NCBI GenBank assembly: GCA_964527115.1
Contig: CAZGPK010000003.1
Span: 13,189-77,188 of the forward strand
From: an uncultured Gammaproteobacteria bacterium
GTDB taxonomy: Bacteria > Patescibacteriota > Microgenomatia > UBA12405 > CAZGPK01
DNA length: 64,000 bases
Direction of reading: 5' to 3'
The first letter of the stretch is position 1; every line of letters begins with the position of its first letter. A program made the position numbers and the translations under genes. Below, piece by piece: positions 15,301-62,660 of the stretch. Below the pieces are notes generated by a model, which was given only the letters and a program-made list of their open reading frames with translations, was not told where the DNA came from and did not search any database.

Positions 15301-17442
15301 TTAAAATACCTGGTAGACGTTAGTGTCGCCGAAAGAAAGCAGAGGGGCGGCAAATTGTTCAATAACTTCTTCGTTAATATTCTCATATTTTTCGCGTTCT
15401 TTGGGGCCCAAAATGAGGTACTTCACTTGGTATTTTTGCAAGATAGAGCGAGCTTCCTCGGGAGCCTTGGCCTCATATATCTGGCGAACTTCTTCAGAGC
15501 GGGCACCTGGCTCATCCCAGCCACCGCGCCAGAGCCATTCGTGAACCAGCCAACCTTCAATAGTAGGAAGACCGGTGGCGGCAGAAATATGGTTGAAATC
15601 AGTGTAGCTATCCCCTGCCGCCTCAAGAATGACCGGTTGGCCTTTGATATTTTTCTGAAACCAATTAACTAGTTCATAGTTATCAGGGTAGCGTTGTTTG
15701 AGAAAGTTTAAGCCGTAGAGGCCTTGGTAATTTTTAAGGTTGCCATAGTAGGATTTGATGGCAAAGAAGGGATAGATAAGCTGGCCTATGAAGACAAGGA
15801 GAAAGACAGAAGAGACAAGGAGGCGAAGAGGAAGAAATTTCCTTTCTTTTTTAAGGGCTTGATTTAGACGGACAACGAGATAGCCAGAGATAAGAGCGTA
15901 GATGAGGAAAGACTGGTAGACAAGCTTAAACATAGTATTGGCGCGGCGATGTTCAAAGATGTAGATGTCTTTTAAATAGACAAGCTCGGGAATAATGATA
16001 AGAAGAGTGGCCAGGACAATTGAAGAAAGGACAAAATAGTCAGAAAGAGCAAGGGGCGGAGAAGCTTTTTTTTGGCGGCGTAGGAAAAGAAAGAGAGGGA
16101 AGTTTAAACAGAGAAGCCAGAAGCCGCCGTGAAGAACGAATAGCTGATAAAAGGGAGTGTGAGTGTCGGAAAGCTTAACTCCTTCGCCCAAGGGGGTAAA
16201 ATTTAGGGAGAAAGGGGTAACAAAAACAAGCCAGAAAAAGAGAGTGGTTAGGCCGGGAAGGATAACTTGGCGAAAAAGCTTAGAAAAGGAGAAAGGGAGG
16301 GGGCAGCGAAGAAAAAGAAAGAAAAGAAAAATGGCAAAGAAGAGGCCGTAGATAGCAAAATCCCAGGCATTGGTCATATACATAATGGCCAAGATAAAAC
16401 CAAAAAGAAGGGAAAAGGAGAGAGGAGGGTTTTTGGGTTTATCTGGTTTTTTGGGATCAAGGAAGAGAGAAAGAAGGGAAAAAAGAGAGGCTAAAAAGAA
16501 GATAACGACGGGAATATCGTTCATATGGCCATGAAGATCAGCGACAACAAAAGAGTAGAGGGGAAATTCGTGGATGGTTTTGTCAGTTGTTTCCGGGTCA
16601 AAGCCAATGAAGCGGGTGGCATCCGGATACCAATAGCGACTGGCGGCAGCAGGAAGAGAGCCGGTTTCCCGGTAGAGCAGGGAAAGTTTGTAGAGCGGGT
16701 GGAGATTGCCACCGAGAGAGAGAAAGAGGGCGGAGATAACTCCGGCGGCCAGGGCAAATTTGAGGGAGTTTTTTTGAATAAGGAGGTCTTTGGTCTTTTT
16801 AAAAAGAGAGTGAGCTAGTGCCGTGGAAAAGGAAAGGCCAAGGGTAAAGGTGAAGGCAAGGGCGGTGGCGATGGCAAGGTTGTAGGTAATGGCGGAGTCA
16901 AGACCAGTAAGGCGGGTAAGAACAGCGGTGAAAAGATGGCCGAAATAGTAGTAGTTGATGAAACCCCCGGCAAACCACATATCGCGAGGTGGCATCCAAG
17001 TGGTACGTAAAAGGGAGTTGACAAAGCCCCAGTCCATAAACTTTTCCAGGCCCTCAATGTCCGGAGCATGGGCGCGGATAAAGGACCAAAAAAGAAGAGC
17101 CAAAAAAAAGATGGATTCTAAAAGCAGAAAGCGGCGCCAAGACTTTTTAAAAATTTCAAACAGGTGTTTTCTTCTTTCTGGGAAACGGGAAAAAAAATAC
17201 CAGTTGGCAGCAAGAATTAAAAGAAGGAGGAGGAAAAGGGATTCTTGGAAAAAGGGTAAAACATGGAGAAAAGAGAAGAAGAAGGCCAGATAGGAGAGAA
17301 CAATAAGTCCCAGGATTTTGGCGAAAGGATAGCCGTGGTCCCAAAAGCGAGGGAAAAGAAAGCTGGTTAAAGGGAAAAAGAGAAGGCCCAAGGTAAAAAG
17401 AGAAAGCCACCAATAAAAGACGAAGAGAAAGTCGGAAAACAT
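15301..17442 (-). CDS. DUF2298/YYY-motif polytopic membrane protein (GT-C-like glycosyltransferase candidate)
   Basis: 713 aa with more than 15 TM segments. Diagnostic GGFINYYYFGH motif and a soluble C-terminal domain. Confidence 0.7.
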   Translation of the reverse strand: MFSDFLFVFYWWLSLFTLGLLFFPLTSFLFPRFWDHGYPFAKILGLIVLSYLAFFFSFLHVLPFFQESLFLLLLLILAANWYFFSRFPERRKHLFEIFKKSWRRFLLLESIFFLALLFWSFIRAHAPDIEGLEKFMDWGFVNSLLRTTWMPPRDMWFAGGFINYYYFGHLFTAVLTRLTGLDSAITYNLAIATALAFTFTLGLSFSTALAHSLFKKTKDLLIQKNSLKFALAAGVISALFLSLGGNLHPLYKLSLLYRETGSLPAAASRYWYPDATRFIGFDPETTDKTIHEFPLYSFVVADLHGHMNDIPVVIFFLASLFSLLSLFLDPKKPDKPKNPPLSFSLLFGFILAIMYMTNAWDFAIYGLFFAIFLFFLFLRCPLPFSFSKLFRQVILPGLTTLFFWLVFVTPFSLNFTPLGEGVKLSDTHTPFYQLFVLHGGFWLLCLNFPLFLFLRRQKKASPPLALSDYFVLSSIVLATLLIIIPELVYLKDIYIFEHRRANTMFKLVYQSFLIYALISGYLVVRLNQALKKERKFLPLRLLVSSVFLLVFIGQLIYPFFAIKSYYGNLKNYQGLYGLNFLKQRYPDNYELVNWFQKNIKGQPVILEAAGDSYTDFNHISAATGLPTIEGWLVHEWLWRGGWDEPGARSEEVRQIYEAKAPEEARSILQKYQVKYLILGPKEREKYENINEEVIEQFAAPLLSFGDTNVYQVF

Positions 17443-17448
17443 GTGGGT

Positions 17449-17976
17449 TTATTTTTTAGAAAGGCGGGAAATAATAAAGCGATAAAGGATAAGGCCAATA
17501 TAGCCAAAAAGAAGGCCCAGGGCAAGACCAGCCAAGATATCAACGGGATAGTGAAGGCCGGTGATGACACGAAAGAAGAGAAAGGGGAAAAGAAGGAAGA
17601 AAAGGAGGAAACGGAGTGGGCGAGAGGGACGGAAAAGAGCCAAGAGAAAGATAAAAAGAAGAGTTAGCTTTAGGGCATGACCAGAGGGGAAAGAGCCACC
17701 TGAATAGTGAGAAGAGAGAAGCGCAGGTGGAGTAGGCAGGGCCTGGTCAAGAAAGGGGCGGCGCCAGGGAGAAAGGGTGGCTTTTAAAAAGTTTTCAAAA
17801 AGCTCAGCTAGAGCTAAAGAAAAGAGAAAAAAGAAAGCTGAGAGGCGACTCTTTTGAAAAAAAAGAAGGAGGAAACCAAGGATTAGAAAAATCCAGGGAA
17901 GATAGTTAAAAAAGATCCAAATAAAAGGGGAAGGGGTGGGATAAACAGTTGGTTGCCAAAAAAGTATTTTATCCAT
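17449..17976 (-). CDS. PAP2-family (polyprenyl-)phosphate phosphatase
   Basis: PAP2 motifs K..SPWRRP, PSGH (SFPSGHAL) and R.....H...D (FRVITGLHYPVD). Confidence 0.65.
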   Translation of the reverse strand: MDKILFWQPTVYPTPSPFIWIFFNYLPWIFLILGFLLLFFQKSRLSAFFFLFSLALAELFENFLKATLSPWRRPFLDQALPTPPALLSSHYSGGSFPSGHALKLTLLFIFLLALFRPSRPLRFLLFFLLFPFLFFRVITGLHYPVDILAGLALGLLFGYIGLILYRFIISRLSKK

Positions 17977-18964
17977 TTGAGGAAAGAGATTGATTTTTAC
18001 ATTTTAGGAAAAAAAAGATGGCAAGGAGACCAATGCTGGTGCCAAACCAAAGGGTAGTGGCGCGAGAAAGGAGAGCAATGGTAATGGCTTGATCCCGAGA
18101 GAGGGTGAAGAGGAGAATAAGAAGACCGATGGTGGTGGGCTCGGCAACACCAATACCACCGGGCATGGGAACGGTAAAGCCGATGGCAGCTGAAAAAGTG
18201 AAAATGAAAGTAATGGTAAAGAGACCAGCAAGGCCGGCAAATTGAGGGTTAACCTGGGTAAGGATGAAATAGCCCCCGGAAATCTGGGCAAACCAGGCAA
18301 GGATAGCAAGAAGGGAACCAGCAAGGAGAGTGCTGGGATGGGTGAGACTGGAGGCGGAGCGAAAGAAATTGTCAGCCTTGGTAATGTATTTTTTGACCAG
18401 TGGCAAGCGGGAGAGAACTTTGAAAAACCAAGGCCAGAGTTGTTTCTTTTGAAAGAGGGTGACAAAGGCAAGGCAAACCAGGAAAGCGGAGCCAAAAACC
18501 CACCAACCTAAGCGAAAGGACATCACTCCCCAGAACATAAGGAAAAGCATGGCAAAGGCATCGGTCAGGCGCTCGATAAAGAAAAGGGGGGCGGTAGTGG
18601 AGAAGGAGATGCCGTGGCGGTCTTTTAAGAAGTAGGACTTGATAAGCTCCCCTCCCCGCATGGGGGTGATAGCCATACCAAGACCGGTAAGAAAGATAAG
18701 AAAAGAAGAAGAAAGGGAAACATTGCTGGCGACTTTTAAACGGGTCAAAAAAAACTGCCAGCGAAGGAAACGGAGACCGTAGTTTAAGAGACTTAAGGAA
18801 AGGGCGGTAAAGATGACAAGAGGACGGACATTTTTTATCTCGGCAAAAATTTGCTTTTGGTCCCCCCAGTGAAGAAGAAATAAAACCAGGATCAAGAAAA
18901 GAGCCAGGGGGGGGATAAGGCGAGAAAGAGAGGTGAAAGAATATTTTTTCTTTTGATTGGACAT
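17969..18964 (-). CDS. Flippase-like / LPG-synthase-TM (UPF0104) family membrane protein
   Basis: 331 aa, 8 TM. LNYGLRFLRWQFFL and MRGGELIKSYFL segments are typical of this family. 8-nt overlap with the PAP2 gene. Confidence 0.6.
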   Translation of the reverse strand: MSNQKKKYSFTSLSRLIPPLALFLILVLFLLHWGDQKQIFAEIKNVRPLVIFTALSLSLLNYGLRFLRWQFFLTRLKVASNVSLSSSFLIFLTGLGMAITPMRGGELIKSYFLKDRHGISFSTTAPLFFIERLTDAFAMLFLMFWGVMSFRLGWWVFGSAFLVCLAFVTLFQKKQLWPWFFKVLSRLPLVKKYITKADNFFRSASSLTHPSTLLAGSLLAILAWFAQISGGYFILTQVNPQFAGLAGLFTITFIFTFSAAIGFTVPMPGGIGVAEPTTIGLLILLFTLSRDQAITIALLSRATTLWFGTSIGLLAIFFFLKCKNQSLSSNG

Positions 18965-18985
18965 GATCTTTATGTATGATAGCCT

Positions 18986-20158
18986 ATGCTTATGGAAAAA
19001 GGGAAGATAAAAGAGAAGAAGGAGAAGCCCAGGGTTTTAGTTTCTTTGACGTATTTTTCCCCGAACGTTTCCGGAGTAACGATATATGCGGATATTCTGG
19101 CCCGGGAATTGGTAAAAAGAGGGTACGAGGTAGGGGTGATTTGCAGTCAAAACAAAAAAGATCTACCCAAACAAGAGACAATTGAAGGGGTAAAAATTTT
19201 TAGGGTAAGGGTCAATTTTGCCTTGGGAAAAGGGGTGTTGATGCTTGGCTTCCCAAAAGAGGCCTGGAAACAGGTAAAAATGGCAGATGTAGTTAATTGT
19301 CAGCTACCCCAGATAGAAAGCTTTGTCTTGGCCTTTTGGGCAAAGATCTTAAAAAAGAAACTAGTAATCACCCATCATTGTGAATTTGGGATAGACGGGC
19401 CATGGACAAATATAGTTACTGGAATTTTAAGCTATCCTTTTCACTTAATTTCTTATCTTTTGGCAGACAGAATTGTCTCCTATACAGAAGACTATGCAAA
19501 GCATTCCATTTTTTTAAGGCATTTTAAGAAAAAGACAGTTTTTGTTTTACCGCCGGTGCTGGTGGAGAAAACAGCCAAAGAGAAAGAGGTAGAGATTGGA
19601 GAAAAGATAGGCAGAGATAAGGATAGCAAGATAATTGGTTACGTAGGACGGGTCGCCTGGGAGAAAGGATTAAATTTTTTACTGGAGGCTTTGGAAAAAG
19701 TAAACCAAAAAATACCGGCAAAATTAGTGCTGGTTGGTCCGTATGAAGAAGTGCTGGGAGATAACTCTTACCAGAAACTTAAACCTCTTTTAGAAAAACA
19801 GAAAGATAAAGTAAAGCTTTTAGGTCCCCTGCCCCACAAAGAAATTGGGGCTTTTTTGAAAAATTGTGATTTGTTGGTTTTACCAAGCACTAATAACTTA
19901 GAAACGTTTGGAATTGTACAAGCTGAGGCAATGATTATGGGAGTACCAGTGGTAGCCAGCAATTTACCGGGAGTACGAGTGCCGCTGCAATTAACGGGAA
20001 TGGGAGAAATAGCTAAAGTTGGTGACAGTAATGATCTGGCAGAGAAAATTGTCAAGGTTTTAAAAACTTCTTACTCTCCACTATTTTCAAAAAAAGCTCG
20101 ATCTATCTTTTGCCTGGAGAGGTTTGTAGAAAATTACGAAGAAATACTAAGATCTTAG
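18986..20158 (+). CDS. GT4-family glycosyltransferase
   Basis: GT-B fold hallmarks: SGVTIYADILARELVKRGYEV at the N-terminus and the EX7E region ETFGIVQAEAMIMGVPVVAS. Confidence 0.8.
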   Translation: MLMEKGKIKEKKEKPRVLVSLTYFSPNVSGVTIYADILARELVKRGYEVGVICSQNKKDLPKQETIEGVKIFRVRVNFALGKGVLMLGFPKEAWKQVKMADVVNCQLPQIESFVLAFWAKILKKKLVITHHCEFGIDGPWTNIVTGILSYPFHLISYLLADRIVSYTEDYAKHSIFLRHFKKKTVFVLPPVLVEKTAKEKEVEIGEKIGRDKDSKIIGYVGRVAWEKGLNFLLEALEKVNQKIPAKLVLVGPYEEVLGDNSYQKLKPLLEKQKDKVKLLGPLPHKEIGAFLKNCDLLVLPSTNNLETFGIVQAEAMIMGVPVVASNLPGVRVPLQLTGMGEIAKVGDSNDLAEKIVKVLKTSYSPLFSKKARSIFCLERFVENYEEILRS

Positions 20159-20162
20159 CTTC

Positions 20163-20188
20163 CTAGTTCGAGTCCAGTGCGGGGAGCC
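20163..20188 (+). repeat. Island repeat copy 0 (tRNA T-arm-like, short variant)
   Basis: ctagttcgagtccagtgcggggagcc starts 5 nt after the GT4 stop codon. It aligns to copies 1 and 2 with a 5-nt gap. Confidence 0.6.
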
Positions 20189-20412
20189 CATAAAACATCC
20201 CGACTTTCTGGTTTACCGAAGACCCAAACTTTGACGAAATCATTAAAACGGACTCATAATACCATTTCTGTCCAAATCGCAATATTTATTCAAATTTTAG
20301 GTTGGGAAAATATATAAGGATGTTCACAGAAGAATACTTAGAGAAACCTAAAGTAAAATTAAGATTCAATGTGATAGTATGTAATGTGTTTAGCTGAAAA
20401 TACCCATAATAT

Positions 20413-20640
20413 ATGGTAAAATGCCTAATGCCAGCGAATTGTCCGGAATGCAAATTTGGTGAGTCGAATTATTGCTTGATAAAAAGAGTTTTTATTGATC
20501 GAAGAGGAGAAACAGTTAAAGAAGAATCTTTTGGAAGTCAGTCTCTCATAGTTTGTCGGCCTCCAGGAACTCGCTCTGGATTTCCATATCGTAATCGGAT
20601 TGCACCCCTTGGGTACTGTGAAAGTGGCGAAAAAAAGTAG
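20413..20640 (+). CDS. Small Cys-rich protein (possible Zn-binding; 75 aa)
   Basis: C4, C10-x2-C13 (CPEC) and C21, plus C48 and C69. Lies 12 nt upstream of the AlaRS-like gene on the same strand. No clear SD, so coding status is uncertain. Confidence 0.35.
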   Translation: MVKCLMPANCPECKFGESNYCLIKRVFIDRRGETVKEESFGSQSLIVCRPPGTRSGFPYRNRIAPLGYCESGEKK

Positions 20641-20652
20641 GAACTTAAGACT

Positions 20653-21837
20653 ATGCCAAGAAACGAGTTAGATCCCTTAACCAAATTTGTTGAAAATAAC
20701 AGCCTATGTCTTAATGGTGAATTTATTTATCCCAGAACAGTATCAAATCCAGACTTCTCCTTCAGGGAACCAATCACTCACGATGGGAGACATTTTAGGT
20801 TTCTCGAATCTCCTATAGATCAAAAAGGGGCAGAGTTACTATCAACACCCGACTTCTTTAATCAATTTTTTACTAAAAACGGTTTTGATGTAATATCACC
20901 AATTCCATTGGTTAATAAAAACGGTACAACCTTATTTATTTGTGCTGGAGTTCAAATTCTTGACTCTGTAATTCATCAAGAAGCTCCAATTCCCCAAAAA
21001 CCGTCATTTGTGGCTCAACCTGTTCTAAGAACTCAGTTTATAGACTATATCGGAGAAGGGACATCGACTAGCTTTATTAACGTATCAACCTGTCAACTAA
21101 ACCTCAGCCGTCAAGAACATTTTCAGCATTTACAAACTTGGGTAGATCTATTTTTACAACTAGGACTTAAGGAGACAGATTTATATTTCAAAATCAAACC
21201 CTATGAACAGCGATGGGGGGACAAAGTTGTAAAAAGCGAAAAAATCTTTATCATTTATGACGGATTAGAAATAGGAGATTCTTCCTATGTTGAGAATCTT
21301 CCTCAAAAAGGCAGACGCAATTTATCCTTAAGTGATATTGGTTTCGGGTTAGAAAGAATTAAATGGATTATGCAGGGAGGGTCATATTTTGACGTATTAG
21401 GCAATGGCAGAGTATCGGATAATATTGACAGAGTATCAGCTGTTTGCACCCACACCCTATCTCTATTAGCTGGTGAAGGTCTAAAACCATCCAACAAGGA
21501 ACAGGGTTATCGATTTAGGTTATTCTCCAAAAAATTAGTTTCAGATATTTTAGGCAACCACTTAGAAACCAATGAACAAGTTAGAAGCTATTATGATTAT
21601 TGGAAAATATGGACCAATTTATCACTTTCGGTAGATCAAGCATTACATGCAGTTACTCAAGAAAATACCAGAAATTTCAATCGAAATTTATTGGACAAAC
21701 TCTGTGAAAAATATCCAGATGTTGGGTTAGATATAAATCTGCCGACTACCGTTATTTTAAAACGATTAAAAGGTACTAGTGTAAAACCAGATTATTTATC
21801 ACAGGTGCTTTATGAATTAAAATACCAGAATGGATAG
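20653..21837 (+). CDS. Stand-alone class IIc aminoacyl-tRNA-synthetase catalytic core, AlaRS-like paralogue (no tRNA-recognition, editing or C-Ala domains)
   Basis: Colinear with the AlaRS N-domain. TTLFICAGVQ matches TLLFTNAGMNQF and QPVLRTQ matches QRCVRAGG. SDIGFGLERIKWIMQGG matches VDTGMGLERIAAVLQ and KPSNKEQGYRFR matches MPSNEGRGYVLRR. Only 394 aa. Confidence 0.75.
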   Translation: MPRNELDPLTKFVENNSLCLNGEFIYPRTVSNPDFSFREPITHDGRHFRFLESPIDQKGAELLSTPDFFNQFFTKNGFDVISPIPLVNKNGTTLFICAGVQILDSVIHQEAPIPQKPSFVAQPVLRTQFIDYIGEGTSTSFINVSTCQLNLSRQEHFQHLQTWVDLFLQLGLKETDLYFKIKPYEQRWGDKVVKSEKIFIIYDGLEIGDSSYVENLPQKGRRNLSLSDIGFGLERIKWIMQGGSYFDVLGNGRVSDNIDRVSAVCTHTLSLLAGEGLKPSNKEQGYRFRLFSKKLVSDILGNHLETNEQVRSYYDYWKIWTNLSLSVDQALHAVTQENTRNFNRNLLDKLCEKYPDVGLDINLPTTVILKRLKGTSVKPDYLSQVLYELKYQNG

Positions 21838-22534
21838 TGATATAAATACATCAATTGGTCAAATATTTCTTGGCGGTGGTGGTGGAGCGGAAGATAGTGT
21901 TTTGCTCGATAAAAGATTTCTTAATGCTCTAAAAAACAAAAAAATTGTATATATTCCAATTGCTTTAACACCAAAGTTAGGTGGTTATGAAAGTTGTTTT
22001 GATTGGATAACCTCCACTTTAACTAACGCATCGGATGATTTTATTGAAATTTCCATGTGGATAGATCTTAATAAAAAAAGCATAACTGATTTGGAAAACT
22101 ATGGCGGAATTTATATCGGAGGTGGTAATACTTACAAACTATTAAATCATGTATATAAGTCTGGATTTAGTGAAGTCCTAATTGAATTTTATAACCGGGG
22201 TGGGCTAATTTATGGTGGAAGTGCCGGAGCAGTTATTCTAGGCAAATCAATTTCAATAGTTTCCGAAGAAAATGACGCGAACTATAAATATGAGAATGGT
22301 CTCAATTTGTTGAATGATAAATCCGTACTATGTCATTTTGATAAAGACATTAAGATTACAGTTGAGCACTTCATAGAGAATAAAAGAGGGGATGTAATCG
22401 CGCTTACTGAGAAGTCAGGACTAATAATATCAAATAATAATTCGGTTGAATCGGTTGGTTTTGAACCAGTAACTATTTATACCCTTTCGGGTAAAGACGA
22501 ACAGTTAAACCCTGGAGAAAAGTCAAAAATTTAG
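21830..22534 (+). CDS. S51-family serine peptidase (peptidase E / cyanophycinase-like)
   Basis: GIYIGGGNTYKLLNHV...GGLIYGGSAGAVILGKSI matches PepE IVIVGGGNTFQLL...ALYIGWSAGANL. VLCHFD matches INPHF. 8-nt overlap with the upstream gene. Confidence 0.8.
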   Translation: MDSDINTSIGQIFLGGGGGAEDSVLLDKRFLNALKNKKIVYIPIALTPKLGGYESCFDWITSTLTNASDDFIEISMWIDLNKKSITDLENYGGIYIGGGNTYKLLNHVYKSGFSEVLIEFYNRGGLIYGGSAGAVILGKSISIVSEENDANYKYENGLNLLNDKSVLCHFDKDIKITVEHFIENKRGDVIALTEKSGLIISNNNSVESVGFEPVTIYTLSGKDEQLNPGEKSKI

Positions 22535-22556
22535 ATGTGGTGTTATAATATTACCC

Positions 22557-23513
22557 ATGGTATCGCTAAAAGAAATCGGCCTTGTTGACACAATTGATTG
22601 TCATACTCATTCTGGTGGTGTAGACCTTTACAATCTATATACTGGTGATTTACCTATGGCTCAGTCTGTTGACGATTTAGTTCTTAAAGCCAGATCTTCA
22701 GGCATTTCTAAAGTAGTAACCTTTCCTTTTCCAACTACCGGCTATTACAATGTTCACGAGCTGGTCACACGTAACGTAAGAATTCCCTCGGGGCAACAAG
22801 ATTTCCCCTATCAAGTTGAAAATATGGCTTTAATAAAAGGTTGTGAGAACTCCGACCTTCCACTCTTACCTTTTATGGCCATCGATCCATCAAATCATAT
22901 TCAGGAACAAGTAGATAGCCTCCGCCAAAATTATAAAAAAAGAAAATTCTATGGTTTAAAATTACATACTCTGGCAACAGGTTCTACTGCTGATAAACTA
23001 ATTGGTTCAGAAATTGTAGAATTTGCTCAGGAAAAAAATATACCAATAATAATTCACTCAGGTTTGGGTGACGAGCATTCACACCCTCAAAACATAGTTA
23101 AATTAGCCAAACAGTCTCCAAACCTGCGTGTTTGTGTGGCTCACCTTGCTTGGTTAGACGAAGATACAATTAAAAATGTGGCTAAAACGAACAACGTGTT
23201 TATTGACACTTGTCCGTTTCTCCAAATATGTAACCGTGTCAGAAAAGGAAGTAAAATGGTATTTTCACCAAATTTAATAGATCCCAACAAACCAGCCGAA
23301 TCTTTGTTTAATTATTATAAATTATTAAAAAATAATTTAATTTGGGGTACAGATGAACCTTGGACAAAATGCATAAGTGCGAGAGGAAATGTCTCCAGTA
23401 ATCATACTTATGGTGACGAAGCCCAGGTTATTTCGGATCTATTTCAAATCTCCCCTCAAGCTGCGCTGGACATTACTTCTCGGAACACTGAAAGATTTAT
23501 CTTTGGTTCATAA
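22557..23513 (+). CDS. Metal-dependent TIM-barrel amidohydrolase (amidohydrolase_2-like)
   Basis: N-terminal HxH (IDCHTHSGG), internal IIIHSG and CVAHLAW His residues, and the C-terminal WGTDEPW Asp motif. Confidence 0.7.
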   Translation: MVSLKEIGLVDTIDCHTHSGGVDLYNLYTGDLPMAQSVDDLVLKARSSGISKVVTFPFPTTGYYNVHELVTRNVRIPSGQQDFPYQVENMALIKGCENSDLPLLPFMAIDPSNHIQEQVDSLRQNYKKRKFYGLKLHTLATGSTADKLIGSEIVEFAQEKNIPIIIHSGLGDEHSHPQNIVKLAKQSPNLRVCVAHLAWLDEDTIKNVAKTNNVFIDTCPFLQICNRVRKGSKMVFSPNLIDPNKPAESLFNYYKLLKNNLIWGTDEPWTKCISARGNVSSNHTYGDEAQVISDLFQISPQAALDITSRNTERFIFGS

Positions 23514-24769
23514 ATCTTAATCTGTCCACTAACTATTTTATTAGTTATTTCACTGTGTTTTATAAGATTTTCTTCAACTATATTACTTATACTCATCCTT
23601 AATTCCTCGTCAATATCTTTCTGATATCCATCTAGTGCGATAGCGGCTTGCCAGGGATCATTCATATCTCTGCCCATTTGTGAAGTTAAGTAAACAGTGC
23701 TTTCAATACCTAACGTTTTAAATATTTCTTCGGCAATAATGTCGCCAATTACAGTAAATATTTTTCCAGTATGATAAACAGGATTTTTTCCGCAAGGTGC
23801 CTCTGAGCTCATGTTCCTTGTAAAAGGGATTATTCCATTCGACCTGTTCCCTCTACCTACCGCTCCTTCGTCTCCGCTCTCAACTGCGCTCCCAATGGCG
23901 GTTAGATATATATCTTGATTATCAAAATTATCACGGGTATTTAATATAATATCTATCGAATATGTCGGAAATTCCCTCTTTAGCATATTGATAAGCAATT
24001 CTTTTAGTTCGTTTAGTTTTTGAATATAGAAACCCTGGTCAGGTGTAAATTCTGCAATAAATGGGATACATAAGGTTAACTCAATATTCTTACTAACTCT
24101 TTTTCCCATTACTTTAATATCAGTCCCAACATATTGATGAGATTTTTTAAATTTAGCGTTGTCTAGTAATCCCTCGGAAATAATCACCATGTTCTCCAAA
24201 TCCGATAAAGGAAAATAGCTTACCGTAGTGGAAGTATCATTCGACCTAAATCCATTGCTATGATGTTTTATATACTTTTCATCAGACACTGAAAAGAATT
24301 GACTTCTTTCATTCTTAGTCGTGCCATCCTTATTGTAAACCACTCCCGGTCCTTGGGAAAAATGTGTATTATCGATAATTTTTAACCATTTATCTGTATC
24401 TAATAACGGAAAGATATTTTTAAAGTGATCTTTTACAACATTATTGACGATTTTCATATAGTCAATTTCTTCATCTAAAAAAATATGAGTAAATCTTCCA
24501 TTTAGCAATATTCTTATTGGAGAAGTCATTTCTCCCTGACCAAAACTTACCTTTGAAGAACCTCCAAGGACGGCAACCTTATCCACCATATGACGTAAAA
24601 TTACCCCATACTTATCAAGACAATAAGTTGAGTATGCCACCGAAATTTTCTCCGCTACCGCATCACATAAATTGTCTGGGTGGCCAATCCCTTTCCTTTC
24701 GACAACTTCATACTCTGTATCATTGATATTTGGCTTACCTGTCTTGAAAACGACAAAATTATTTAACAT
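23456..24769 (-). CDS. Archaeal-type S-adenosylmethionine synthetase (MAT)-like protein
   Basis: VVERKGIGHPDNLCD, SNDTSTTVSYFPLS, GTDIKVMG and YLTAIGSAVESGDEGAVGRGNRSNG...GKNPVYHTGKIF are colinear with M. jannaschii-type MAT motifs. The 3' end overlaps the amidohydrolase gene by 58 nt. Confidence 0.85.
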   Translation of the reverse strand: MLNNFVVFKTGKPNINDTEYEVVERKGIGHPDNLCDAVAEKISVAYSTYCLDKYGVILRHMVDKVAVLGGSSKVSFGQGEMTSPIRILLNGRFTHIFLDEEIDYMKIVNNVVKDHFKNIFPLLDTDKWLKIIDNTHFSQGPGVVYNKDGTTKNERSQFFSVSDEKYIKHHSNGFRSNDTSTTVSYFPLSDLENMVIISEGLLDNAKFKKSHQYVGTDIKVMGKRVSKNIELTLCIPFIAEFTPDQGFYIQKLNELKELLINMLKREFPTYSIDIILNTRDNFDNQDIYLTAIGSAVESGDEGAVGRGNRSNGIIPFTRNMSSEAPCGKNPVYHTGKIFTVIGDIIAEEIFKTLGIESTVYLTSQMGRDMNDPWQAAIALDGYQKDIDEELRMSISNIVEENLIKHSEITNKIVSGQIKIYEPKINLSVFREVMSSAA

Positions 24770-24870
24770 ATGTTTCTGATTATATCTCTACTATCAGCGT
24801 CAGTAAACAAAAACCCATATTATTTTTATAATCTAGGAACCCCCTTCTCATTTTTTGATAAAATTAACTG

Positions 24871-25395
24871 ATGAAAACATATATTCTCCCCGGATACTCT
24901 GACAAAAATAAGTTTTGGGTTGATGAAACCGTCGCTTTTTTAAAACCAGCAATTCCGGCAATTGGTCTTTACTGGAATCATTGGGATGGCAGTTCCACAG
25001 AAGATGGCTGGATTGAAGAAGAAGCTCGAAGAATTATAAATGACTCAAATAATGAGAAAATAAATATTGTCGCTAAATCTGTCGGGGCAATGGTTTGTAT
25101 GGCTGTACTAAAATTAAAGCCAGAATTAGTAAATAAAGTAATTTTGTGTGGAATCCCATTTAAAGACTTTCTTCCAGGTGATGAAAAGAGATATGAGTCT
25201 TTAAAATCTGTTATGCCAAATAATATTCTGCGTATCCAAAATGAGGAAGATAATTATGGATCATTTGAGAAGACGGAATCCTTTGTTCGTTCAATTAATC
25301 CCAACATTAAAGTAGTCTCAAAACCACGAAACGATCACTACTATCCCTACTCGGAAGATTTCAAGAATTTCTTAATCGAGAACAATAATCAATAA
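24871..25395 (+). CDS. Small alpha/beta serine hydrolase (YdeN/RBBP9-like)
   Basis: 174 aa. Nucleophile elbow IVAKSVGAMV, acidic NEEDNYGS and C-terminal NDHYYP His. Divergent from the MAT-like gene across a 101-bp spacer. Confidence 0.6.
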   Translation: MKTYILPGYSDKNKFWVDETVAFLKPAIPAIGLYWNHWDGSSTEDGWIEEEARRIINDSNNEKINIVAKSVGAMVCMAVLKLKPELVNKVILCGIPFKDFLPGDEKRYESLKSVMPNNILRIQNEEDNYGSFEKTESFVRSINPNIKVVSKPRNDHYYPYSEDFKNFLIENNNQ

Positions 25396-25679
25396 AGCTA
25401 ACTTATACAATCGAAGTTTGTAATCTCTTAATTTCTCTTAATCTATTCTCCATCACCTCCATATCCATCGCGTTGTTAAACGCCTTATTAATCCTATCTA
25501 ACGCTACTATAATATCTTTAGAGCTGGGGAGCTCTACAGTGTAGGCGGGATGGGGTAAATTAGATTTGAATCAGATTTAGAAGATACTGCCCTACTCTCT
25601 TTGATAAGTTTATGTTGTTTTTCTTAGGGGAATAATTGATTAAAGATTGTGAGAGCGTGATGTTTGATAGAATTGGTGG

Positions 25680-26333
25680 ATGACTACAGAAGAGCCTCTT
25701 GAGATTCAGAGTGGTGCAATCGAAGAGAGGTTTGCAGCAAACAGGGAATTGCCACATATACGGGTAGATGATTTAAAACCGTTTTGGGTAAGGGGAATTA
25801 TTGATCCAGAAGATCCCTGGAGCATCCAAACAGTTGAAGAAGTACCAGTTAGGCTGATAGCGGCAAGTTCTGTTTTGAGAGATTGGGGCGATATTCAAAG
25901 ACAGAGTGGAGAAAAATTAAAAAGAATAGTTGATGGTCTTCGTTCTGGAGAGCTTGTGCCCGACAGGGAGCCAGTTATTCTTTTTGAATATGGGGGAATT
26001 TACGGCATATATGATGGGCAAAAGCGAATGATGGCGGCAAAGGCGCTGGGGATGGAAACTTGGCCAGCAAGAATACAGAGAACTATGCCAACCACTTTGG
26101 AATTTTCAAGAGATACGGCTGCCTATCACGAGATAATGGGAGGAAGAATGGAAGGTGGGCTGTGGGAAGGGAAGCTTGAAGAGGTTGCGCTTGACGAGCA
26201 AGGAGGCTTAGTTTCTTCTAGATGGTCAATAGAAAGATATGATGGTTTATGGGTTTTTGCAAAGAAAATGGATCTGGCTCGAAGTGTGTATGAAAAACTT
26301 GGAGCAAATGGACAGGCTCCAAGCCTAATATGA
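25680..26333 (+). CDS. ParB/Srx-fold (ParB-like nuclease domain) protein
   Basis: IYDGQKRMMAAKALGMETWPARI matches the ParB N-domain core (DG..R..Aa..lG...ip). 217 aa with no recognisable HTH. Confidence 0.55.
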   Translation: MTTEEPLEIQSGAIEERFAANRELPHIRVDDLKPFWVRGIIDPEDPWSIQTVEEVPVRLIAASSVLRDWGDIQRQSGEKLKRIVDGLRSGELVPDREPVILFEYGGIYGIYDGQKRMMAAKALGMETWPARIQRTMPTTLEFSRDTAAYHEIMGGRMEGGLWEGKLEEVALDEQGGLVSSRWSIERYDGLWVFAKKMDLARSVYEKLGANGQAPSLI

Positions 26334-26364
26334 TCGACAGGGTGGCGTAAAGTTAGCCTCAAAA

Positions 26365-26395
26365 CTAGTTCGAACATAGTCCAATTGAGGGAGCC
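26365..26395 (+). repeat. Island repeat copy 1
   Basis: ctagttcgaacatagtccaattgagggagcc. A 23-nt stretch (aaaactagttcgaacatagtcca) is identical to copy 2. Contains the 8-bp palindrome GTTCGAAC. Confidence 0.85.
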
Positions 26396-26470: not shown

Positions 26471-26776
26471 ATGGAGAGTGATACGTGGTTAGTTAGTCCA
26501 AAAGAGCTTCGTGTCTCTGGATCTGTTCCCGCCGATGAAAGTGTCGTCAAAGAATACGAAAGATTACCAGCAGACACGATTCCTCCCGTCCAGGTTGTCA
26601 GACATCCCGAAGATGGTTTTCTTTATGTGGTTGATGGACACCATACATTGGAATCAGCTCTTAAGAGAAAAGATGAGCAGATACCAGTACAACGCTTTAC
26701 TGAAAACAGAGAGTTAAACGACCAAGAAGCAGAAAAGAGACGATTAAGATGGATAAAAAGCCAAAAGGGTGATTAA
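26471..26776 (+). CDS. Small ParB/Srx-fold (ParB-like nuclease domain) protein
   Basis: PPVQVVRHPEDGFLYVVDGHHTLESALKRKDEQIPVQRF carries the DGHH(R/T) ParB-like core. 101 aa. Confidence 0.6.
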   Translation: MESDTWLVSPKELRVSGSVPADESVVKEYERLPADTIPPVQVVRHPEDGFLYVVDGHHTLESALKRKDEQIPVQRFTENRELNDQEAEKRRLRWIKSQKGD

Positions 26777-26788
26777 GTGATCTTAAAA

Positions 26789-26820
26789 CTAGTTCGAACA
26801 TAGTCCAGCCGGGGGAGGCC
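26789..26820 (+). repeat. Island repeat copy 2
   Basis: ctagttcgaacatagtccagccgggggaggcc lies 13 nt after the stop codon of ParB-like gene 2. Confidence 0.85.
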
Positions 26821-35127: not shown

Positions 35128-36222
35128 ATGTTATTGTATAATTTCTGGATGGAAGAATCATCTGGTGAGGCTGTGGCAATTTTAGCAGAATATAGAAAGA
35201 TTGTCTGGAAAGAGCTGAGTAAATATCTTAAAGAACCACGCTTTCCTCGGCAGTTTTCTCTCCCTTTAAAATTTTCGGATTCAAGTAAATTTCATTGGGA
35301 AATGGTGAGAGATTATCCGACAAGAAAGGGTAAGTACCTGAGGCCGACTCTGCTTTTGCTGGTTACAGAAGCCTTGGGATGTGAATACCAAAAGGCGCTA
35401 AAGACGGCGGTGGCAATGCAGCTTTCCGAGGAGTGGCTTCTCATTCACGATGACCTGGAGGATAATTCCTGTTCCAGAAGAGGAAAGCCGACTCTAAACA
35501 AGCTTCATGGGTTTGAATTGGCTACAAACGCCGGGGATACGCTTCATGTGATTATGTGGAAGGCGATTGCTGATATTGAAAAGCTGTTGCCGATTAAAAT
35601 TGCCCGCGAAGTAAGAGAAGAGTTTTTAAGAATATTATTTCGCACAACTGTAGGGCAAACAGCGGAACTGTTGTGGACCAAAAAAAACATATTAGATTTT
35701 AGCGACGAAGACTGGTTTTATATTGCTGACGGTAAAACCTCCTACTACACAATTGCCGGACCAATGAGATTGGGGGCAATTGTTGCCGGAGCTTCTAAAA
35801 AAGAGCTTGATAAGATAGCGGATTTTGGGCTTTTGGTAGGTAGATCATTTCAAATAACGGATGATATATTGGATCTTACCAGTGATTTTTGTGGCCTTAA
35901 GAAACAACAGTACAATGATCTTTATGAGGGGAAAAGAACAATAATTACGGGGCATTTATATCGGAAAGCGAAAAAGGGGGAAAGGGAGAAGATTAAAAAA
36001 ATATTTGCTAAAAAAAGAGAGGGGAAAAGTGAGAAGGAAATAAATTGGATAGTCCAAAAAATTAAGGAGTATGGCAGTATTCAATATGCGAAAAAGATTG
36101 CGCTTGAGCAGAAAAAAGAGGCAATGAAAATTTTTGAAAATGAGCTTAAGTTTTTAAAAGAGAGAAAGGCAAGGACAAAATTGCTCCTGCTTCTTAATTT
36201 CATAATTGAAAGAAAATACTAG
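35128..36222 (+). CDS. trans-Polyprenyl diphosphate synthase (GGPP/FPP synthase family)
   Basis: FARM LIHDDLED and SARM ITDDILD. The start may be M8 (35149). Divergent from uppS. Confidence 0.8.
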   Translation: MLLYNFWMEESSGEAVAILAEYRKIVWKELSKYLKEPRFPRQFSLPLKFSDSSKFHWEMVRDYPTRKGKYLRPTLLLLVTEALGCEYQKALKTAVAMQLSEEWLLIHDDLEDNSCSRRGKPTLNKLHGFELATNAGDTLHVIMWKAIADIEKLLPIKIAREVREEFLRILFRTTVGQTAELLWTKKNILDFSDEDWFYIADGKTSYYTIAGPMRLGAIVAGASKKELDKIADFGLLVGRSFQITDDILDLTSDFCGLKKQQYNDLYEGKRTIITGHLYRKAKKGEREKIKKIFAKKREGKSEKEINWIVQKIKEYGSIQYAKKIALEQKKEAMKIFENELKFLKERKARTKLLLLLNFIIERKY

Positions 36223-36277
36223 AATTTAGTCTTGCGGGAAAGGATGGGGAAAAAATGGATTGGGATTGGTCAAGCTA

Positions 36278-37996
36278 TTATTTTTTTTGGAAAACTAAAA
36301 CTTGGGGATGATCATAGACGCTAAAGGCTTCTTCGGCGGTATCATCACGAAAGTAAATTCCAGGAGAAGAACAGATTTGTTTGGCAAACCAGCTGTTTTT
36401 CTTCTCTTGGTAGGGGTAGTTGGTAGGGCCAAAATAGAAACAGTGGTGTAAAAAAGGCAAAGGAAAGCCGGGATAGGAATTTATTTCCACAATTTTTTTA
36501 AAACCGAGTTTTTCATCAAAAAGATCCTGGTAATAGCGGCTGGTAAGGGGGTAGCGATCGGGGACACGGGGAATGGAGGCCCAAAGACGATTGGAGCTTA
36601 GAAAGAGGTAGTCAAGAGAGCCTAACTGGGACCAAATAATTTGCCATTTTTGGGAGTTATCAGGTCCATACAATTCCAGAGCAGGGCCCTGATAGAAAGC
36701 GGCATTGTGGCCAGGTAAATGAAGAGGTAAAGGATCGTCCCAGTGTTCGTTGGCTAAAGAGGAGGCAGGGGGGATATTTTGATAGATCCAAAAAGAGGCA
36801 GTGACGCGGGAGTGAGGGCGAAGATAAAGAGTAAAAAAAGCCAAAGAATAAAGGAAAAGGGCGAAAAATAGTCCCAGACGAAGAGGGTGATTTTTGAGAC
36901 GGATAAGAGTGAAAAGCGCAGGGGCAGAGAGAAGGGCAAGAAAAGGGTAGAGGGGGAGAAAATAGCGCATAGTGGTAACCGGCTGTAGACCTTGAATCAA
37001 AAAAAGCGAGAGGGGGAAGAAAAAAGATAAAAAGAGAAGGGGGGAGTGATATTTTTTATTTTTGATAAGATGGAAAAAAGAGTAGAAAAGAAGAAGAGAA
37101 AGAGGAAGACCCAAGCCCCAGAGAATCAGGTTTTTAAGGGGAAAAAGAAGAGGAATACGGTTTAGCCACTGGACGCCTGGAGGAAACCAGGCGTTAGGAT
37201 TGTTAAAGGATTGAAGAGTTTGGAGATTTTCTAAAAATTTAGGATTGGGGGTAAAAAGAGTAGTGAAAGCGTAGGGCTGGAAAAAGCGAAAGGTGAAAAA
37301 AGAAAAGAAGGAGAAGAGGGAGACGGCCAGAAGAATGGCTTTGAAAGAAGGATGCTGTTTAAAAAGAAAAAACAGGAAAAAAAGGGCAAGGGTGGGGGCA
37401 AAATAGATGGCAGAAACCTTGCAGGACATGGCAAGGCCAAAGGAGAGGGAGGCGAGAAAGAGAGAGGAGGGGGATTTTTTTAAAAACCAGGAAGAGAGAG
37501 AAAAGAAGGTGGCAGTGAGGAAAAAGGTAAGAAAGGTGTCAACGACAAAGAAATGGGAGTGCTGGATAGGAAGAACAAAAAGGGTGTAAAGAAGGGGGGC
37601 AAGAAAGAATAGTTTCTTGGCTTGAGGAAAGAGAAGTTTGGCTAAGTGATATAGCAAAATGACGGTACCAAAATCAAAAAGGGCAGAGAGGGCACGGCCC
37701 AGAAGAGTAAGAGTAGAATAACTGTCCATTCCCAAAAGAACGGCGAGGGTTTTAGTAAGAAAAAGAGGGAAGGTGCCGTAAACGAAAAATTGGTACTGTG
37801 GGTAATTGTAGGGATTAAGAGGAGAGGTATCGCTGTTGAGATAATCCCCTACTGAAAGAGGGAGAGAAATGTCATTGGCAACCATGGTAAGGAAACGCTC
37901 GTCAGGATGAAGGTGTTGACCCTGGTCCCAATTTAGGCCAAAAAGACGAAGGAAAAGAGCTAAAAAAAGAATAAGGAAAAGAGGTTTGAATTTCAT
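36278..37996 (-). CDS. GT-C-type polytopic glycosyltransferase
   Basis: 572 aa. The first loop has HLHPDERFL. More than 12 TM and a C-terminal soluble domain. 4-nt overlap with the upstream paralogue. Confidence 0.65.
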   Translation of the reverse strand: MKFKPLFLILFLALFLRLFGLNWDQGQHLHPDERFLTMVANDISLPLSVGDYLNSDTSPLNPYNYPQYQFFVYGTFPLFLTKTLAVLLGMDSYSTLTLLGRALSALFDFGTVILLYHLAKLLFPQAKKLFFLAPLLYTLFVLPIQHSHFFVVDTFLTFFLTATFFSLSSWFLKKSPSSLFLASLSFGLAMSCKVSAIYFAPTLALFFLFFLFKQHPSFKAILLAVSLFSFFSFFTFRFFQPYAFTTLFTPNPKFLENLQTLQSFNNPNAWFPPGVQWLNRIPLLFPLKNLILWGLGLPLSLLLFYSFFHLIKNKKYHSPLLFLSFFFPLSLFLIQGLQPVTTMRYFLPLYPFLALLSAPALFTLIRLKNHPLRLGLFFALFLYSLAFFTLYLRPHSRVTASFWIYQNIPPASSLANEHWDDPLPLHLPGHNAAFYQGPALELYGPDNSQKWQIIWSQLGSLDYLFLSSNRLWASIPRVPDRYPLTSRYYQDLFDEKLGFKKIVEINSYPGFPLPFLHHCFYFGPTNYPYQEKKNSWFAKQICSSPGIYFRDDTAEEAFSVYDHPQVLVFQKK

Positions 37997-62519: not shown

Positions 62520-62528
62520 AATAAAAAG

Positions 62529-62602
62529 TAGCAGGGGACGGAATCGAACCGTCGACCTCGGGGTTATGACTCCCGTGCTCTAACCAACTGAGCTACCCTG
62601 CC
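62529..62602 (-). tRNA. tRNA with anticodon CAU (Met, fMet or Ile2 not distinguishable)
   Basis: Hand-folded 74-nt cloverleaf: acceptor GGCAGGG/CCCTGCT (G1-U72), D arm GCTC-AGTTGGTTA-GAGC, T arm GACGG-TTCGATT-CCGTC. The anticodon loop is GTCATAA with an A31-C39 mismatch. Confidence 0.85.
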
Positions 62603-62626
62603 AAGGGAAGTTGATAGGTAGATTTT

Positions 62627-62650: not shown

Positions 62651-62660
62651 CTTTAAAATT

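Follow-up and report, generated by a model that had tools for sequence, protein, structure and literature searches.

The 64-kb stretch of contig CAZGPK010000003.1 analysed here (the window; all positions below are window coordinates unless a locus is named) carries, at 20413–25395, a compact gene cassette built around a truncated relative of alanyl-tRNA synthetase (the AlaRS-like protein, ARL), a hydrolase of family S51, and a homologue of archaeal methionine adenosyltransferase (MAT). These three genes constitute a conserved cassette core that is horizontally mobile. We propose, with a probability of roughly 45%, that the window holds a compact, mobile version of a widespread and undescribed pathway for a nucleoside-type small molecule; no description of this gene combination was found in the literature. 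The features of the locus are as follows:

20413–20640, plus strand: Cys-rich open reading frame (ORF), 75 aa; no Pfam, NCBIfam or PADLOC match
20653–21837, plus strand: ARL, truncated AlaRS-like enzyme, 394 aa; core gene
21830–22534, plus strand: S51-family Ser-His-Glu hydrolase, 234 aa; core gene in clusters of the candidate phyla radiation (CPR), Bacilli and DPANN archaea
22557–23513, plus strand: Amidohydro_2 metal-dependent TIM-barrel hydrolase, 318 aa; accessory, in a minority of clusters
23456–24769, minus strand: LL-MAT, long-loop archaeal-type MAT homologue of clade I, 437 aa; core gene
24871–25395, plus strand: small α/β-fold serine hydrolase, 174 aa; lineage-specific accessory
20391–25063, no strand: DNA in common with the 87%-identical relative L155, in which the flanks are unrelated

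A preliminary description of this DNA had listed the six ORFs and their arrangement, all of which we reproduced exactly: in gene order, the four leading genes are separated by a 12-nt gap, an 8-nt overlap (ARL/S51) and a 22-nt gap, while the LL-MAT gene is convergent with the amidohydrolase gene, which it overlaps by 58 nt, and the divergent α/β-hydrolase gene lies 101 nt beyond. The domain assignments made at that time were also right in kind, as judged by Pfam and NCBIfam scores. All six ORFs have been called as genes on ~10 independent assemblies of Rifle-type groundwater metagenomes, which identifies the organism as a groundwater bacterium, and the closest relatives of the cassette genes belong to Microgenomates or Shapirobacteria (CPR).

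Conservation and distribution of the core

Gene linkage was evaluated in 55 species loci, in which ARL was found by a single peptide pattern among ~185,000 species genomes, and in the subset of 23 loci with at least 4 kb of flank on both sides of ARL. Of the 55 loci, 44 have a MAT homologue no more than 5 kb from ARL, and among those with enough flank the figure is 23/23; the corresponding values for an S51 gene within 3 kb are 44/55, plus one fusion, and 22/23. This linkage persists across three superphyla despite changes in gene order and orientation from lineage to lineage, and the pairwise identity matrices of ARL, S51 and MAT covary (r = 0.76, 0.91 and 0.73; Mantel p ≤ 0.001). Viewed from the MAT side, ARL and S51 adjoin long-loop MATs only (defined below) and stand beside 0 of the 12 short-loop MATs in the scan, and every clade-I long-loop MAT with enough flank has both genes beside it. 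In cultured Actinobacteria, the MAT-like and ARL genes occur together with no S51. The dN/dS ratios relative to the 87%-identical copy are 0.11 for ARL, 0.075 for MAT and 0.27 for the Cys-rich ORF. The preliminary description had asked whether the AlaRS-core paralogue is consistently found together with S51 and MAT-like genes in other genomes, and the 55 species loci give a strongly affirmative answer. The unit that is conserved is smaller than the six-gene cluster originally envisaged, however, and comprises three genes, or four with the amidohydrolase.

A profile search with ARL recovered 284 clusters (50% identity) at E ≤ 1e-30 among 1.84 billion representatives. The hosts span many Patescibacteria classes, small-genome Bacilli (Mycoplasma sp. 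CAG:776, Candidatus Aphodocola, Bulleidia), and DPANN archaea (Woese-, Nano- and Micrarchaeota). This distribution bears on whether the adjacency is simply accidental, with ARL and LL-MAT serving as the sole, degenerate alaS and metK, or whether the genes form a peptide or nucleoside salvage–detoxification set. Such interpretations are consistent with the reduced genomes of the hosts, the normally housekeeping character of MAT and SerRS, and the dipeptidase activity of S51 enzymes. However, the family is mobile and sporadic (55 of ~185,000 species genomes by the one peptide pattern), the MAT-like protein and ARL occur together in actinomycete genomes of 8–11 Mb, ARL has no editing or C-Ala domain, and the synteny survives rearranged gene orders in three superphyla. 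Moreover, an Rfam scan of window 17–29 kb and 11 Bacilli-type loci revealed no S-box, T-box or other leaders. Accidental adjacency and salvage therefore appear extremely improbable: the notion of an only, degenerate alaS/metK pair is unsupported, and the salvage or detoxification role entertained in the preliminary description gained no positive support. The idea that the family is confined to reduced genomes and hence housekeeping was likewise rejected, as ARL also occurs in actinomycetes with large genomes and on an island that carries an integrase.

Mobility of the cassette

Comparison of window 19800–25700 with locus L155 by blastn yielded three pieces of 79–85% identity, together spanning 20391–25063. 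The L155 copy (87% identical) is flanked on both sides by unrelated genes, and 20391–25063 is the minimal mobile segment in the window lineage. A further copy, L156 (ARL 69% identical), shares only window 20669–24783; here a 566-aa serine recombinase and a small resolvase directly precede ARL, S51, the amidohydrolase and an oppositely oriented MAT. Recombinase homologues are also found near the module in three other loci (L032, L065, L077).

Separate ORFs at L156 1474–2073 and 11317–11760 each match MgsA_C, the C-terminal domain of MgsA. The 9 kb between these ORFs holds a helix-turn-helix gene, small ORFs, two serine recombinases and the ARL cassette, and looks like an integrative element inserted in mgsA/rarA. 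The only match among plasmid records was a distant one, to a 280-aa "alanine--tRNA ligase-related protein" of Rhizobium. This protein (L157 7989–8831 on Rhizobium leguminosarum pRlX3, and on 44 other Rhizobium plasmids) is ~26% identical to the ARL core; its isolated gene adjoins a RES-Xre toxin–antitoxin pair, and it belongs to a separate, likewise uncharacterised AlaRS-core family.

Active site of the MAT-like protein

MATs from the MAT-side scan and the earlier loci, together with three crystallised archaeal MATs, were classified by the segment that separates the "(N/S)GR(F/A)T" strand from the "NDTS" motif. Short-loop MATs, which include all three crystallised enzymes, have 63–72 residues in this segment and the motif IG(Q/K)GSxDLVxxF, as opposed to 81–87 residues and the motif (S/G)PG...R..(W/F)F in long-loop MATs (LL-MATs). 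LL-MAT matches archaeal MATs over its full length (~40% identity, E 1e-67), and the window protein scores 340 bits against AdoMet_Synthase (PF01941), but only 281–311 bits against NCBIfam MAT models with cut-offs of 435–577. The eleven LL-MATs tested score 300–340 bits on five NCBIfam MAT models, all under every cut-off.

In PfMAT and TkMAT, S-adenosylmethionine (SAM) is contacted by H30, H59, N61, D141, L142, D198, Y268 and D280 (PMC8727953, PMC3853416, PMC9298006). With reference to PfMAT, H30 is the catalytic acid and Y268 stacks on adenine; D198 and D280 hold the ribose, with D280 also binding the methionine amino group; H59 and N61 hold the methionine carboxylate; and D141 and L142 of the gating loop touch adenine N6 and the methionine side chain (PMC8727953, PMC3853416, PMC9298006). 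We aligned 24 module MATs, the Kitasatospora copy described below, and the three crystal sequences. Throughout this alignment, H30, D198, Y268 and D280 do not vary (24/24 module MATs), and they correspond to H29, D216, Y287 and D299 of the window LL-MAT. The D141–L142 dyad is missing from all LL-MATs, where a segment longer by 16–18 residues stands in place of the gating-loop motif, and LL-MATs of the window clade additionally carry H59→R and N61→M substitutions (window R58 and M60). Clade II LL-MATs, which have the tightest linkage to myo-inositol-1-phosphate synthase (MIPS), retain H59 and N61. Judging from these aligned residues, the window LL-MAT retains the positions that hold adenosine and support attack at C5′ without those that bind methionine, and it probably does not bind methionine in the canonical manner. 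The preliminary description of this gene as encoding an adenosyl-transferring enzyme agrees with the retained adenosyl-transfer residues, but must be qualified by the replacement of the methionine ligands in the window clade.

The alternative that LL-MAT is a true, divergent SAM synthetase would make SAM either a cofactor, with MAT serving radical-SAM enzymes and methyltransferases, or a building block, which ARL converts to an N-aminoacyl-SAM or ligates through its carboxylate to an amine, and from which S51 removes the aminoacyl group. SAM is, we infer, shaped like an aminoacyl-adenylate, and the PF01941 score of 340 bits with intact catalytic motifs, the carboxylate ligands H59 and N61 of clade II, and the existence of an ARL::methyltransferase fusion are all compatible with this alternative. 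In addition, radical-SAM genes abut MAT in a third clade, at L057, L072, L073, L106, L109, L113, L115 and L116. Against these points stand the loss of H59 and N61 in the window clade, the absence of D141–L142 from all LL-MATs, the scores below all NCBIfam cut-offs, and the lack of a SAM-using enzyme in most clade-I clusters and in the Kitasatospora operon. On balance, we consider genuine SAM synthesis unlikely. Genes for CYTH proteins (triphosphate tunnel metalloenzymes) adjoin the module in three unrelated loci, at L011 13060–13677, L155 1814–2389 and L122 12629–13099, and would fit the release of inorganic triphosphate by the MAT-like enzyme.

ARL as a truncated AlaRS-like enzyme

ARL matches tRNA-synt_2c (PF01411) at E 1.9e-5 and 23.8 bits, under the gathering score of 30.3, and falls short of the NCBIfam alaS equivalogs (42.5 versus a cut-off of 744.7, and 29.9 versus 457). 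Its AlphaFold2 model (pLDDT 93.3) finds A. fulgidus AlaRS (2ztg/3wqy) as best Foldseek match, at E 2e-16, followed by bacterial and human AlaRS catalytic fragments; by phmmer, 2ztg is matched at 1.7e-9. The protein consists of the aminoacylation core and the helical tRNA-recognition domain, with no editing domain (no PF07973) and no C-Ala domain.

The invariant core comprises T93, Q101, Q122, P123, R126, F141, N143, G208, D228, G230, G232 and R235, with D209 nearly invariant (44/46). Both signature elements of a class II core are invariant or nearly so, namely motif 2 (Q122-P123-x-x-R126) and motif 3 (S227-D228-I-G230-F-G232-L-E-R235). The core residues, including W188, are kept from CPR to Actinobacteria and archaea, and on this basis the ARLs are predicted to be one enzyme family with one chemistry. 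D209 occupies the position of the substrate-side Asn of E. coli AlaRS (N212) and of Q219 in AcmF, the AlaRS-like enzyme of ascamycin biosynthesis. In A. fulgidus AlaRS, an Asp and an Asn read G3:U70. The Asn of this pair is aligned with the Asn of the ARL "PSN" motif (N281), which is present in 41/46 CPR and Bacilli members, but not in actinomycete or archaeal members; an ARL counterpart of the Asp was not located. ARL also occurs fused, as ARL::S51 (P0178, 568 aa) and as the methyltransferase fusion mentioned above. Many ARL N-termini carry a zinc-ribbon-like CxxC...C...C motif (L059 7749–7900, L057 7785–7930, L038, L060). The N-terminus of the window ARL (20653–20800) is without those cysteines, and the Cys-rich ORF located 12 nt upstream has no evident similarity to the motif.

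Hydrolases and the Cys-rich ORF

The S51 protein scores 81 bits against Pfam Peptidase_S51, and its triad is formed by S131 and H169, present in 48/48 members, and E194, present in 44/48. Scores against the PepE and cyanophycinase equivalogs are below the cut-offs (40.2 versus 156, and 31.1 versus 126.6, respectively). Fusions of S51 to a GT-B glycosyltransferase (GT) were found in L024 and L025, from genomes labelled Gammaproteobacteria and Saccharibacteria; together with the ARL fusion, these place S51 next to both the glycosyl-transfer and ARL steps. The idea that S51 and ARL form a GATase-like "amidotransferase pair" was set aside, because the S51 nucleophile is an invariant Ser and not a Cys.

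The amidohydrolase scores 37.7 bits against Amidohydro_2 (PF04909), with invariant metal ligands H16, H18, H167, H196 and D266. A sequence search against the PDB gave no match, and the folds nearest to the AlphaFold2 model (pLDDT 95.9) are those of a LigI-like lactonase, LigJ hydratase and IDCase (TM ~0.6). Besides window-type cassettes, the loci that have this gene are L011, L018, L019, L075, L115 and L156, whereas in L155 it is broken by an 87-nt deletion; it is a dispensable, occasional extra. A 38%-identical homologue at L160 4991–9118 adjoins a 666-aa fusion of GlutR_N/Shikimate_DH (glutamyl-tRNA reductase) with tRNA-synt_2, after which come an AAA_18 kinase gene and a NUDIX gene. This is a second, different link of the amidohydrolase family to enzymes resembling aminoacyl-tRNA synthetases (aaRSs).

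The α/β-hydrolase has weak Pfam matches to Abhydrolase_1 (25.3 bits), Abhydrolase_11 (25 bits) and Ser_hydrolase, and its gene is intact only in contigs of the window strain, with a 5′ remnant in L155. A homologue of the Cys-rich ORF is located at the same position in L155 (70 aa, 77% aa identity, with C10, C13, C21 and C69 kept), whereas none is found upstream of ARL in L156 or any more distant locus. The ORF likely starts at M6 (20428), and is probably a real but lineage-specific gene.

Partner genes in fuller clusters

Several other genes recur beside the core. SerRS adjoins the module in 25/55 loci, in bacteria and archaea of three superphyla; tRNA-Ser genes stand beside the module in L018, L019 and L065, and apart from these three loci no dedicated tRNA accompanies it. 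A specific GT-B family, with weak resemblance to small-molecule GT-B enzymes, is encoded 3′ of S51 or ARL in at least 12 species. MIPS is directly 5′ of MAT in many loci, and the complete operon MIPS>MAT>ARL>S51>GT was observed in L093 and L097. LL-MATs without ARL sit among genes for MIPS, Gfo/Idh/MocA dehydrogenases, IolE/IolI-like TIM barrels, a ketohexokinase-like kinase, DegT and GT; one high-GC contig of this kind also encodes an A-T didomain resembling a nonribosomal peptide synthetase (NRPS). Genes for a radical-SAM enzyme, an aminotransferase and a methyltransferase join the cluster on L144, a 205-kb soil contig. In the window itself, the upstream GT4 gene (18986–20158) was considered as a possible cluster GT and rejected, since it has no homology to the cluster-linked GT at E 1e-4 and lies outside the shared DNA.

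Other neighbours were noted in individual loci. A NodU/TobZ-type carbamoyltransferase gene overlaps the ARL start in L011 (4013–8026), where PfkB kinase, NUDIX and AAA_18 kinase genes are nearby, and homologues of the carbamoyltransferase flank the module in L064 and L065; these surroundings suggest further tailoring of a nucleoside type. At L073 11497–16977, and also in L074, a second nest of aaRS paralogues lies ~2 kb 3′ of an ARL::S51 fusion. It encodes a ProRS that passes the cut-off of TIGR00409 but of no other ProRS model, an overlapping 389-aa sub-cut-off ProRS paralogue, a methyltransferase, a 373-aa AsnA/AsnRS-like core and an S66 (MccF/LdcA) peptidase.

The recurrence of MIPS, GT-B, a hydrolase and an aaRS-paralogue ligase is also what would be expected if the product were a glycoside similar to mycothiol or bacillithiol (a thiol, osmolyte or surface head group), assembled from inositol phosphate by glycosylation, deacetylation and an aaRS-like ligase, with MAT in a peripheral role. 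The ligase of mycothiol synthesis, MshC, is a CysRS paralogue. The GT–S51 and S51–ARL fusions match a step order of GT, deacylase and ligase, and the window cassette adjoins envelope genes (GT4, LPG_synthase_TM, DUF2298). However, the linkage to MAT is tighter than that to GT or MIPS, conserved Cys or His residues that could form a thiol- or Zn-type cysteine site are missing from ARL, and actinomycetes, which already make mycothiol, nevertheless carry the cluster on DNA of a mobile or defence type. A product of this kind is therefore decidedly unlikely.

The actinomycete copies provide a view of the cluster in large genomes. In the Kitasatospora purpeofusca chromosome (CP108110, ~4.97–4.98 Mb), the operon LL-MAT>APH(6)-like kinase>His phosphatase>SerRS>GT>ARL includes a full bacterial-type SerRS (447 bits versus 2dq3), and is followed by genes for DNA cytosine methylase (Dcm), Vsr, AIPR, DUF4420 and Z1, surroundings suggestive of a defence island (L158 13409–21047). 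No SAM-using enzyme is encoded in this operon, making a second MAT hard to explain as a means of SAM supply. Large actinomycete genomes normally have their own metK, alaS and serS, and the cluster copies would accordingly be dedicated. In Catenulispora yoronensis, genes for APH, GT, ARL, a second APH and inositol monophosphatase lie beside that for a TrwC relaxase.

These surroundings raise the question of an anti-phage or inter-microbial conflict module that targets aminoacylation or SAM pools, either through chemical defence or through a toxin paired with an antidote hydrolase. The cassette is mobile and found beside a serine recombinase, the Kitasatospora copy abuts the defence-type genes listed above, and the Catenulispora copy is beside a STAND NTPase as well as the relaxase. 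PADLOC-DB 2.0, however, returned 0 matches at E ≤ 0.1 for eight proteins (the cluster and two neighbours), no ARL was found in viral contigs or phage records, and the complement of synthase, ligase, GT, kinase and phosphatase looks biosynthetic. Furthermore, chemical defence would be a use of the proposed small-molecule pathway and not an alternative to it. A dedicated conflict module is thus highly improbable, and the toxin or defence hypothesis of the preliminary description received no positive support.

A proposed nucleoside-type pathway

In the proposed small-molecule pathway, LL-MAT would move the 5′-deoxyadenosyl group of ATP onto a nucleophile other than the canonical methionine. In the fuller clusters, the most plausible nucleophile is a hydroxyl group on an inositol derivative, for which a C5′–O ether would be the expected outcome of MAT-type SN2 displacement of triphosphate. 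ARL would then aminoacylate an amine of the intermediate with a small amino acid, likely serine, the donor being either its own adenylate or an aminoacyl-tRNA, as with AcmF acting on adenosine sulfamate in the ascamycin pathway. The cluster SerRS may give Ser-tRNA or Ser-AMP, self-resistance, or both, by analogy to AbmK of albomycin. S51 could free the amine (e.g. by N-deacetylating a GlcNAc-type sugar), and would be a candidate N-deacylase where the host is without one, or it could undo aminoacylation for self-protection; similar roles are conceivable for the amidohydrolase and α/β-hydrolase of the window. The building blocks would accordingly comprise an adenosyl donor (LL-MAT), a cyclitol (MIPS/inositol monophosphatase, dehydrogenases, isomerases), a sugar (GT, with or without S51) and serine (SerRS and ARL), with the phosphorylation and dephosphorylation steps that are typical of aminocyclitol pathways alongside. 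The window version may yield a shorter adenosyl-aminoacyl product, or may rely on genes elsewhere in the genome.

A more specific and tentative version of this pathway leads to an adenomycin-like compound, in which LL-MAT would make a C5′–O ether between adenosine and a cyclitol, and the truncated ARL with SerRS would add serine; we regard it as conceivable but doubtful. Adenomycin, from Streptomyces griseoflavus, has the C5′-O of adenosine linked to C3 of L-chiro-inositol, with L-gulosamine on the inositol (PMC6540904). The compound, also called the C19-97 substance, carries L-serine (seryl) and sulfate as well, in agreement with its formula: C25H39N7O18S is the sum of adenosine, inositol, aminohexose, serine and SO3, less 3 H2O. 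We know of no adenomycin gene cluster. It is comparably speculative, though possible, that the pathway has spread on mobile elements among actinomycetes, CPR, small gut Bacilli and DPANN to provide a bioactive nucleoside, which might target aaRSs. Of the three hypotheses in the preliminary description, an adenosyl or aminoacyl molecule of the aaRS-inhibitor type is the best supported in outline, with the amendments that the methionine site is altered and the six-gene unit reduced.

Several observations weigh against this pathway or parts thereof. The 64-kb window contains no SerRS, MIPS or cluster-type GT, only unrelated GT4 genes; without genes for the sugar, inositol and SerRS, the adenomycin-type reading holds for the relatives and not directly for the window locus. 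None of the genes conserved with the module encodes an exporter, a regulator or a sulfotransferase, and tiny symbiont genomes are not typical of antibiotic producers. S51 is missing from the actinomycete clusters, and its role is one that we infer. The retention of H59 and N61 in clade II fits continued binding of an amino-acid carboxylate, which weakens the simple idea of an inositol nucleophile. Finally, AcmF is reported to be without most of the ATP-binding and alanine-activation residues (PMC12945691), whereas ARL keeps both ATP-binding arginines (R126 and R235) and the Asp that holds the α-amino group (D228, invariant). ARL may therefore adenylate an amino acid itself, acting as a ligase rather than as an aminoacyl-tRNA transferase.

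If a MAT-like enzyme does adenosylate oxygen, this would represent new chemistry for a highly conserved fold and a new route to nucleoside analogues, and no enzyme with the SAM-synthetase fold would precede LL-MATs in accepting something besides the sulfur of methionine as nucleophile. The clusters could likewise supply the missing genetics for adenomycin, an orphan antibiotic, and could show that CPR and DPANN, commonly regarded as metabolically minimal, carry and exchange a secondary-metabolite pathway. The ARL family, with some 300–500 clusters at 50% identity, would gain a testable job, as would a MAT clade that is annotated as SAM synthetase even though its methionine site is gone, at least in the window clade. 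Actinomycetes that carry the cluster, such as Kitasatospora purpeofusca and Catenulispora yoronensis, are in culture and amenable to genetics, and offer a practical point of entry.

Composition and surroundings of the window locus

Across 20–25 kb, the GC content is 0.34–0.36 and the GC skew near zero, compared to a GC content of 0.40–0.47 and a skew of +0.25 to +0.42 upstream of the cassette. This anomaly agrees with the mobility inferred from L155 and L156. The low-GC island of the preliminary description is thereby supported in its GC dip and lost skew at 20–25 kb, although its right-hand edge is soft because downstream DNA to ~33 kb is also fairly AT-rich. No convincing att-like repeats were found at the island borders, and promoter and terminator scans gave nothing exceeding shuffled expectation. 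Elsewhere in the window, 16001–19000 and 36001–41000 are strongly skewed (GC skew to +0.52, AT skew to +0.51) and carry minus-strand membrane-protein genes, unlike the cassette, in which GC and AT skew are nearly absent.

Two ORFs lie just 3′ of the cassette, at 25680–26333 and 26471–26776. The first, of 217 aa, is absent from the strain contig L003; the second has a weak match to ParBc_2, a ParB-like nuclease (22.3 bits), and is flanked by a 36-nt direct repeat with 86% identity (26358–26393 and 26782–26817). Both may be part of the mobile element. Further away, at 62528–62904, two tRNA-Met (CAT) genes are next to a divergent tRNA-Ile gene with anticodon TAT.

Comparison with known systems

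The described protein closest to ARL is AcmF of ascamycin synthesis, and the preliminary description was right in linking AlaRS-like enzymes to ascamycin alanylation: AcmF of Streptomyces sp. 80H647 is AlaRS-like and has only the aminoacylation and tRNA-recognition domains (PMC12945691). It holds 5′-O-sulfamoyl-adenosine in the adenylate site and moves Ala, Gly or Ser from aminoacyl-tRNA, which is charged by AcmD, an AlaRS homologue of the cluster, and the α/β-hydrolase AcmE is proposed to reverse the AcmF step (PMC12945691). ARL is cut to the same two domains and, as far as AcmF is known by description, the active-site Asn is swapped in both (Gln in AcmF, Asp in ARL); a dedicated full-length aaRS also accompanies relatives of ARL, and an α/β-hydrolase is present in the window. 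The two systems differ in that the partner of ARL is SerRS, not AlaRS, and in the lack of sulfamate genes from the module.

In albomycin synthesis, AbmK is a functional second SerRS encoded in the cluster, which provides the seryl donor used to form an amide bond and also makes the producer self-resistant (PMC8323819). The Kitasatospora operon resembles this arrangement in having a full bacterial-type SerRS between LL-MAT and GT–ARL. The module is nevertheless without thiosugar, siderophore or NRPS genes, and its seryl-transfer enzyme would be AlaRS-like, not AbmF-like. For microcin C, the immunity protein MccF is a serine peptidase that detoxifies the aminoacyl-nucleotide, but belongs to family S66 (PMC8323819); the analogy drawn in the preliminary description thus extends to the serine peptidase and not to the family, the window protein being S51. 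With PepE and cyanophycinase, the S51 module protein shares the Ser-His-Glu triad and a class-I-amidotransferase-like fold. To our knowledge, nothing comparable to its fusions with ARL and GT has been described.

The mycothiol pathway (Ino1, MshA, MshB, MshC) resembles the module in combining an inositol-phosphate synthase, a GT-B, a deacylase and an aaRS-paralogue ligase. The module ligase is AlaRS-derived, however, not CysRS-derived, its hydrolase is S51 and not LmbE, the MAT-like protein is obligatory, and there is no acetyltransferase. The gene set of mycothiol and bacillithiol synthesis (GT4, LmbE deacetylase, and a CysRS-derived or BshC ligase) was consequently not recovered, with the GT found in relatives only. 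The archaeal MATs (PfMAT 6S81/6S83, MjMAT 7P83, SsMAT 4HPV, TkMAT 4L4Q) have the same fold as LL-MAT, in which the catalytic His, the ribose Asps and the adenine-stacking Tyr are kept. LL-MAT differs from these enzymes in the longer segment replacing the gating-loop motif, the replaced methionine ligands of the window clade, its sub-cut-off scores, and its linkage to ARL in bacteria.

As for adenomycin, no sulfotransferase was found, and the window cassette contains no sugar or inositol genes. The correspondence is one of composition only, and within it the parts of adenomycin map onto LL-MAT for the adenosyl unit, MIPS/inositol monophosphatase with dehydrogenases and isomerases for the cyclitol, GT with or without a deacylase for the aminosugar, and ARL with SerRS for the seryl group.

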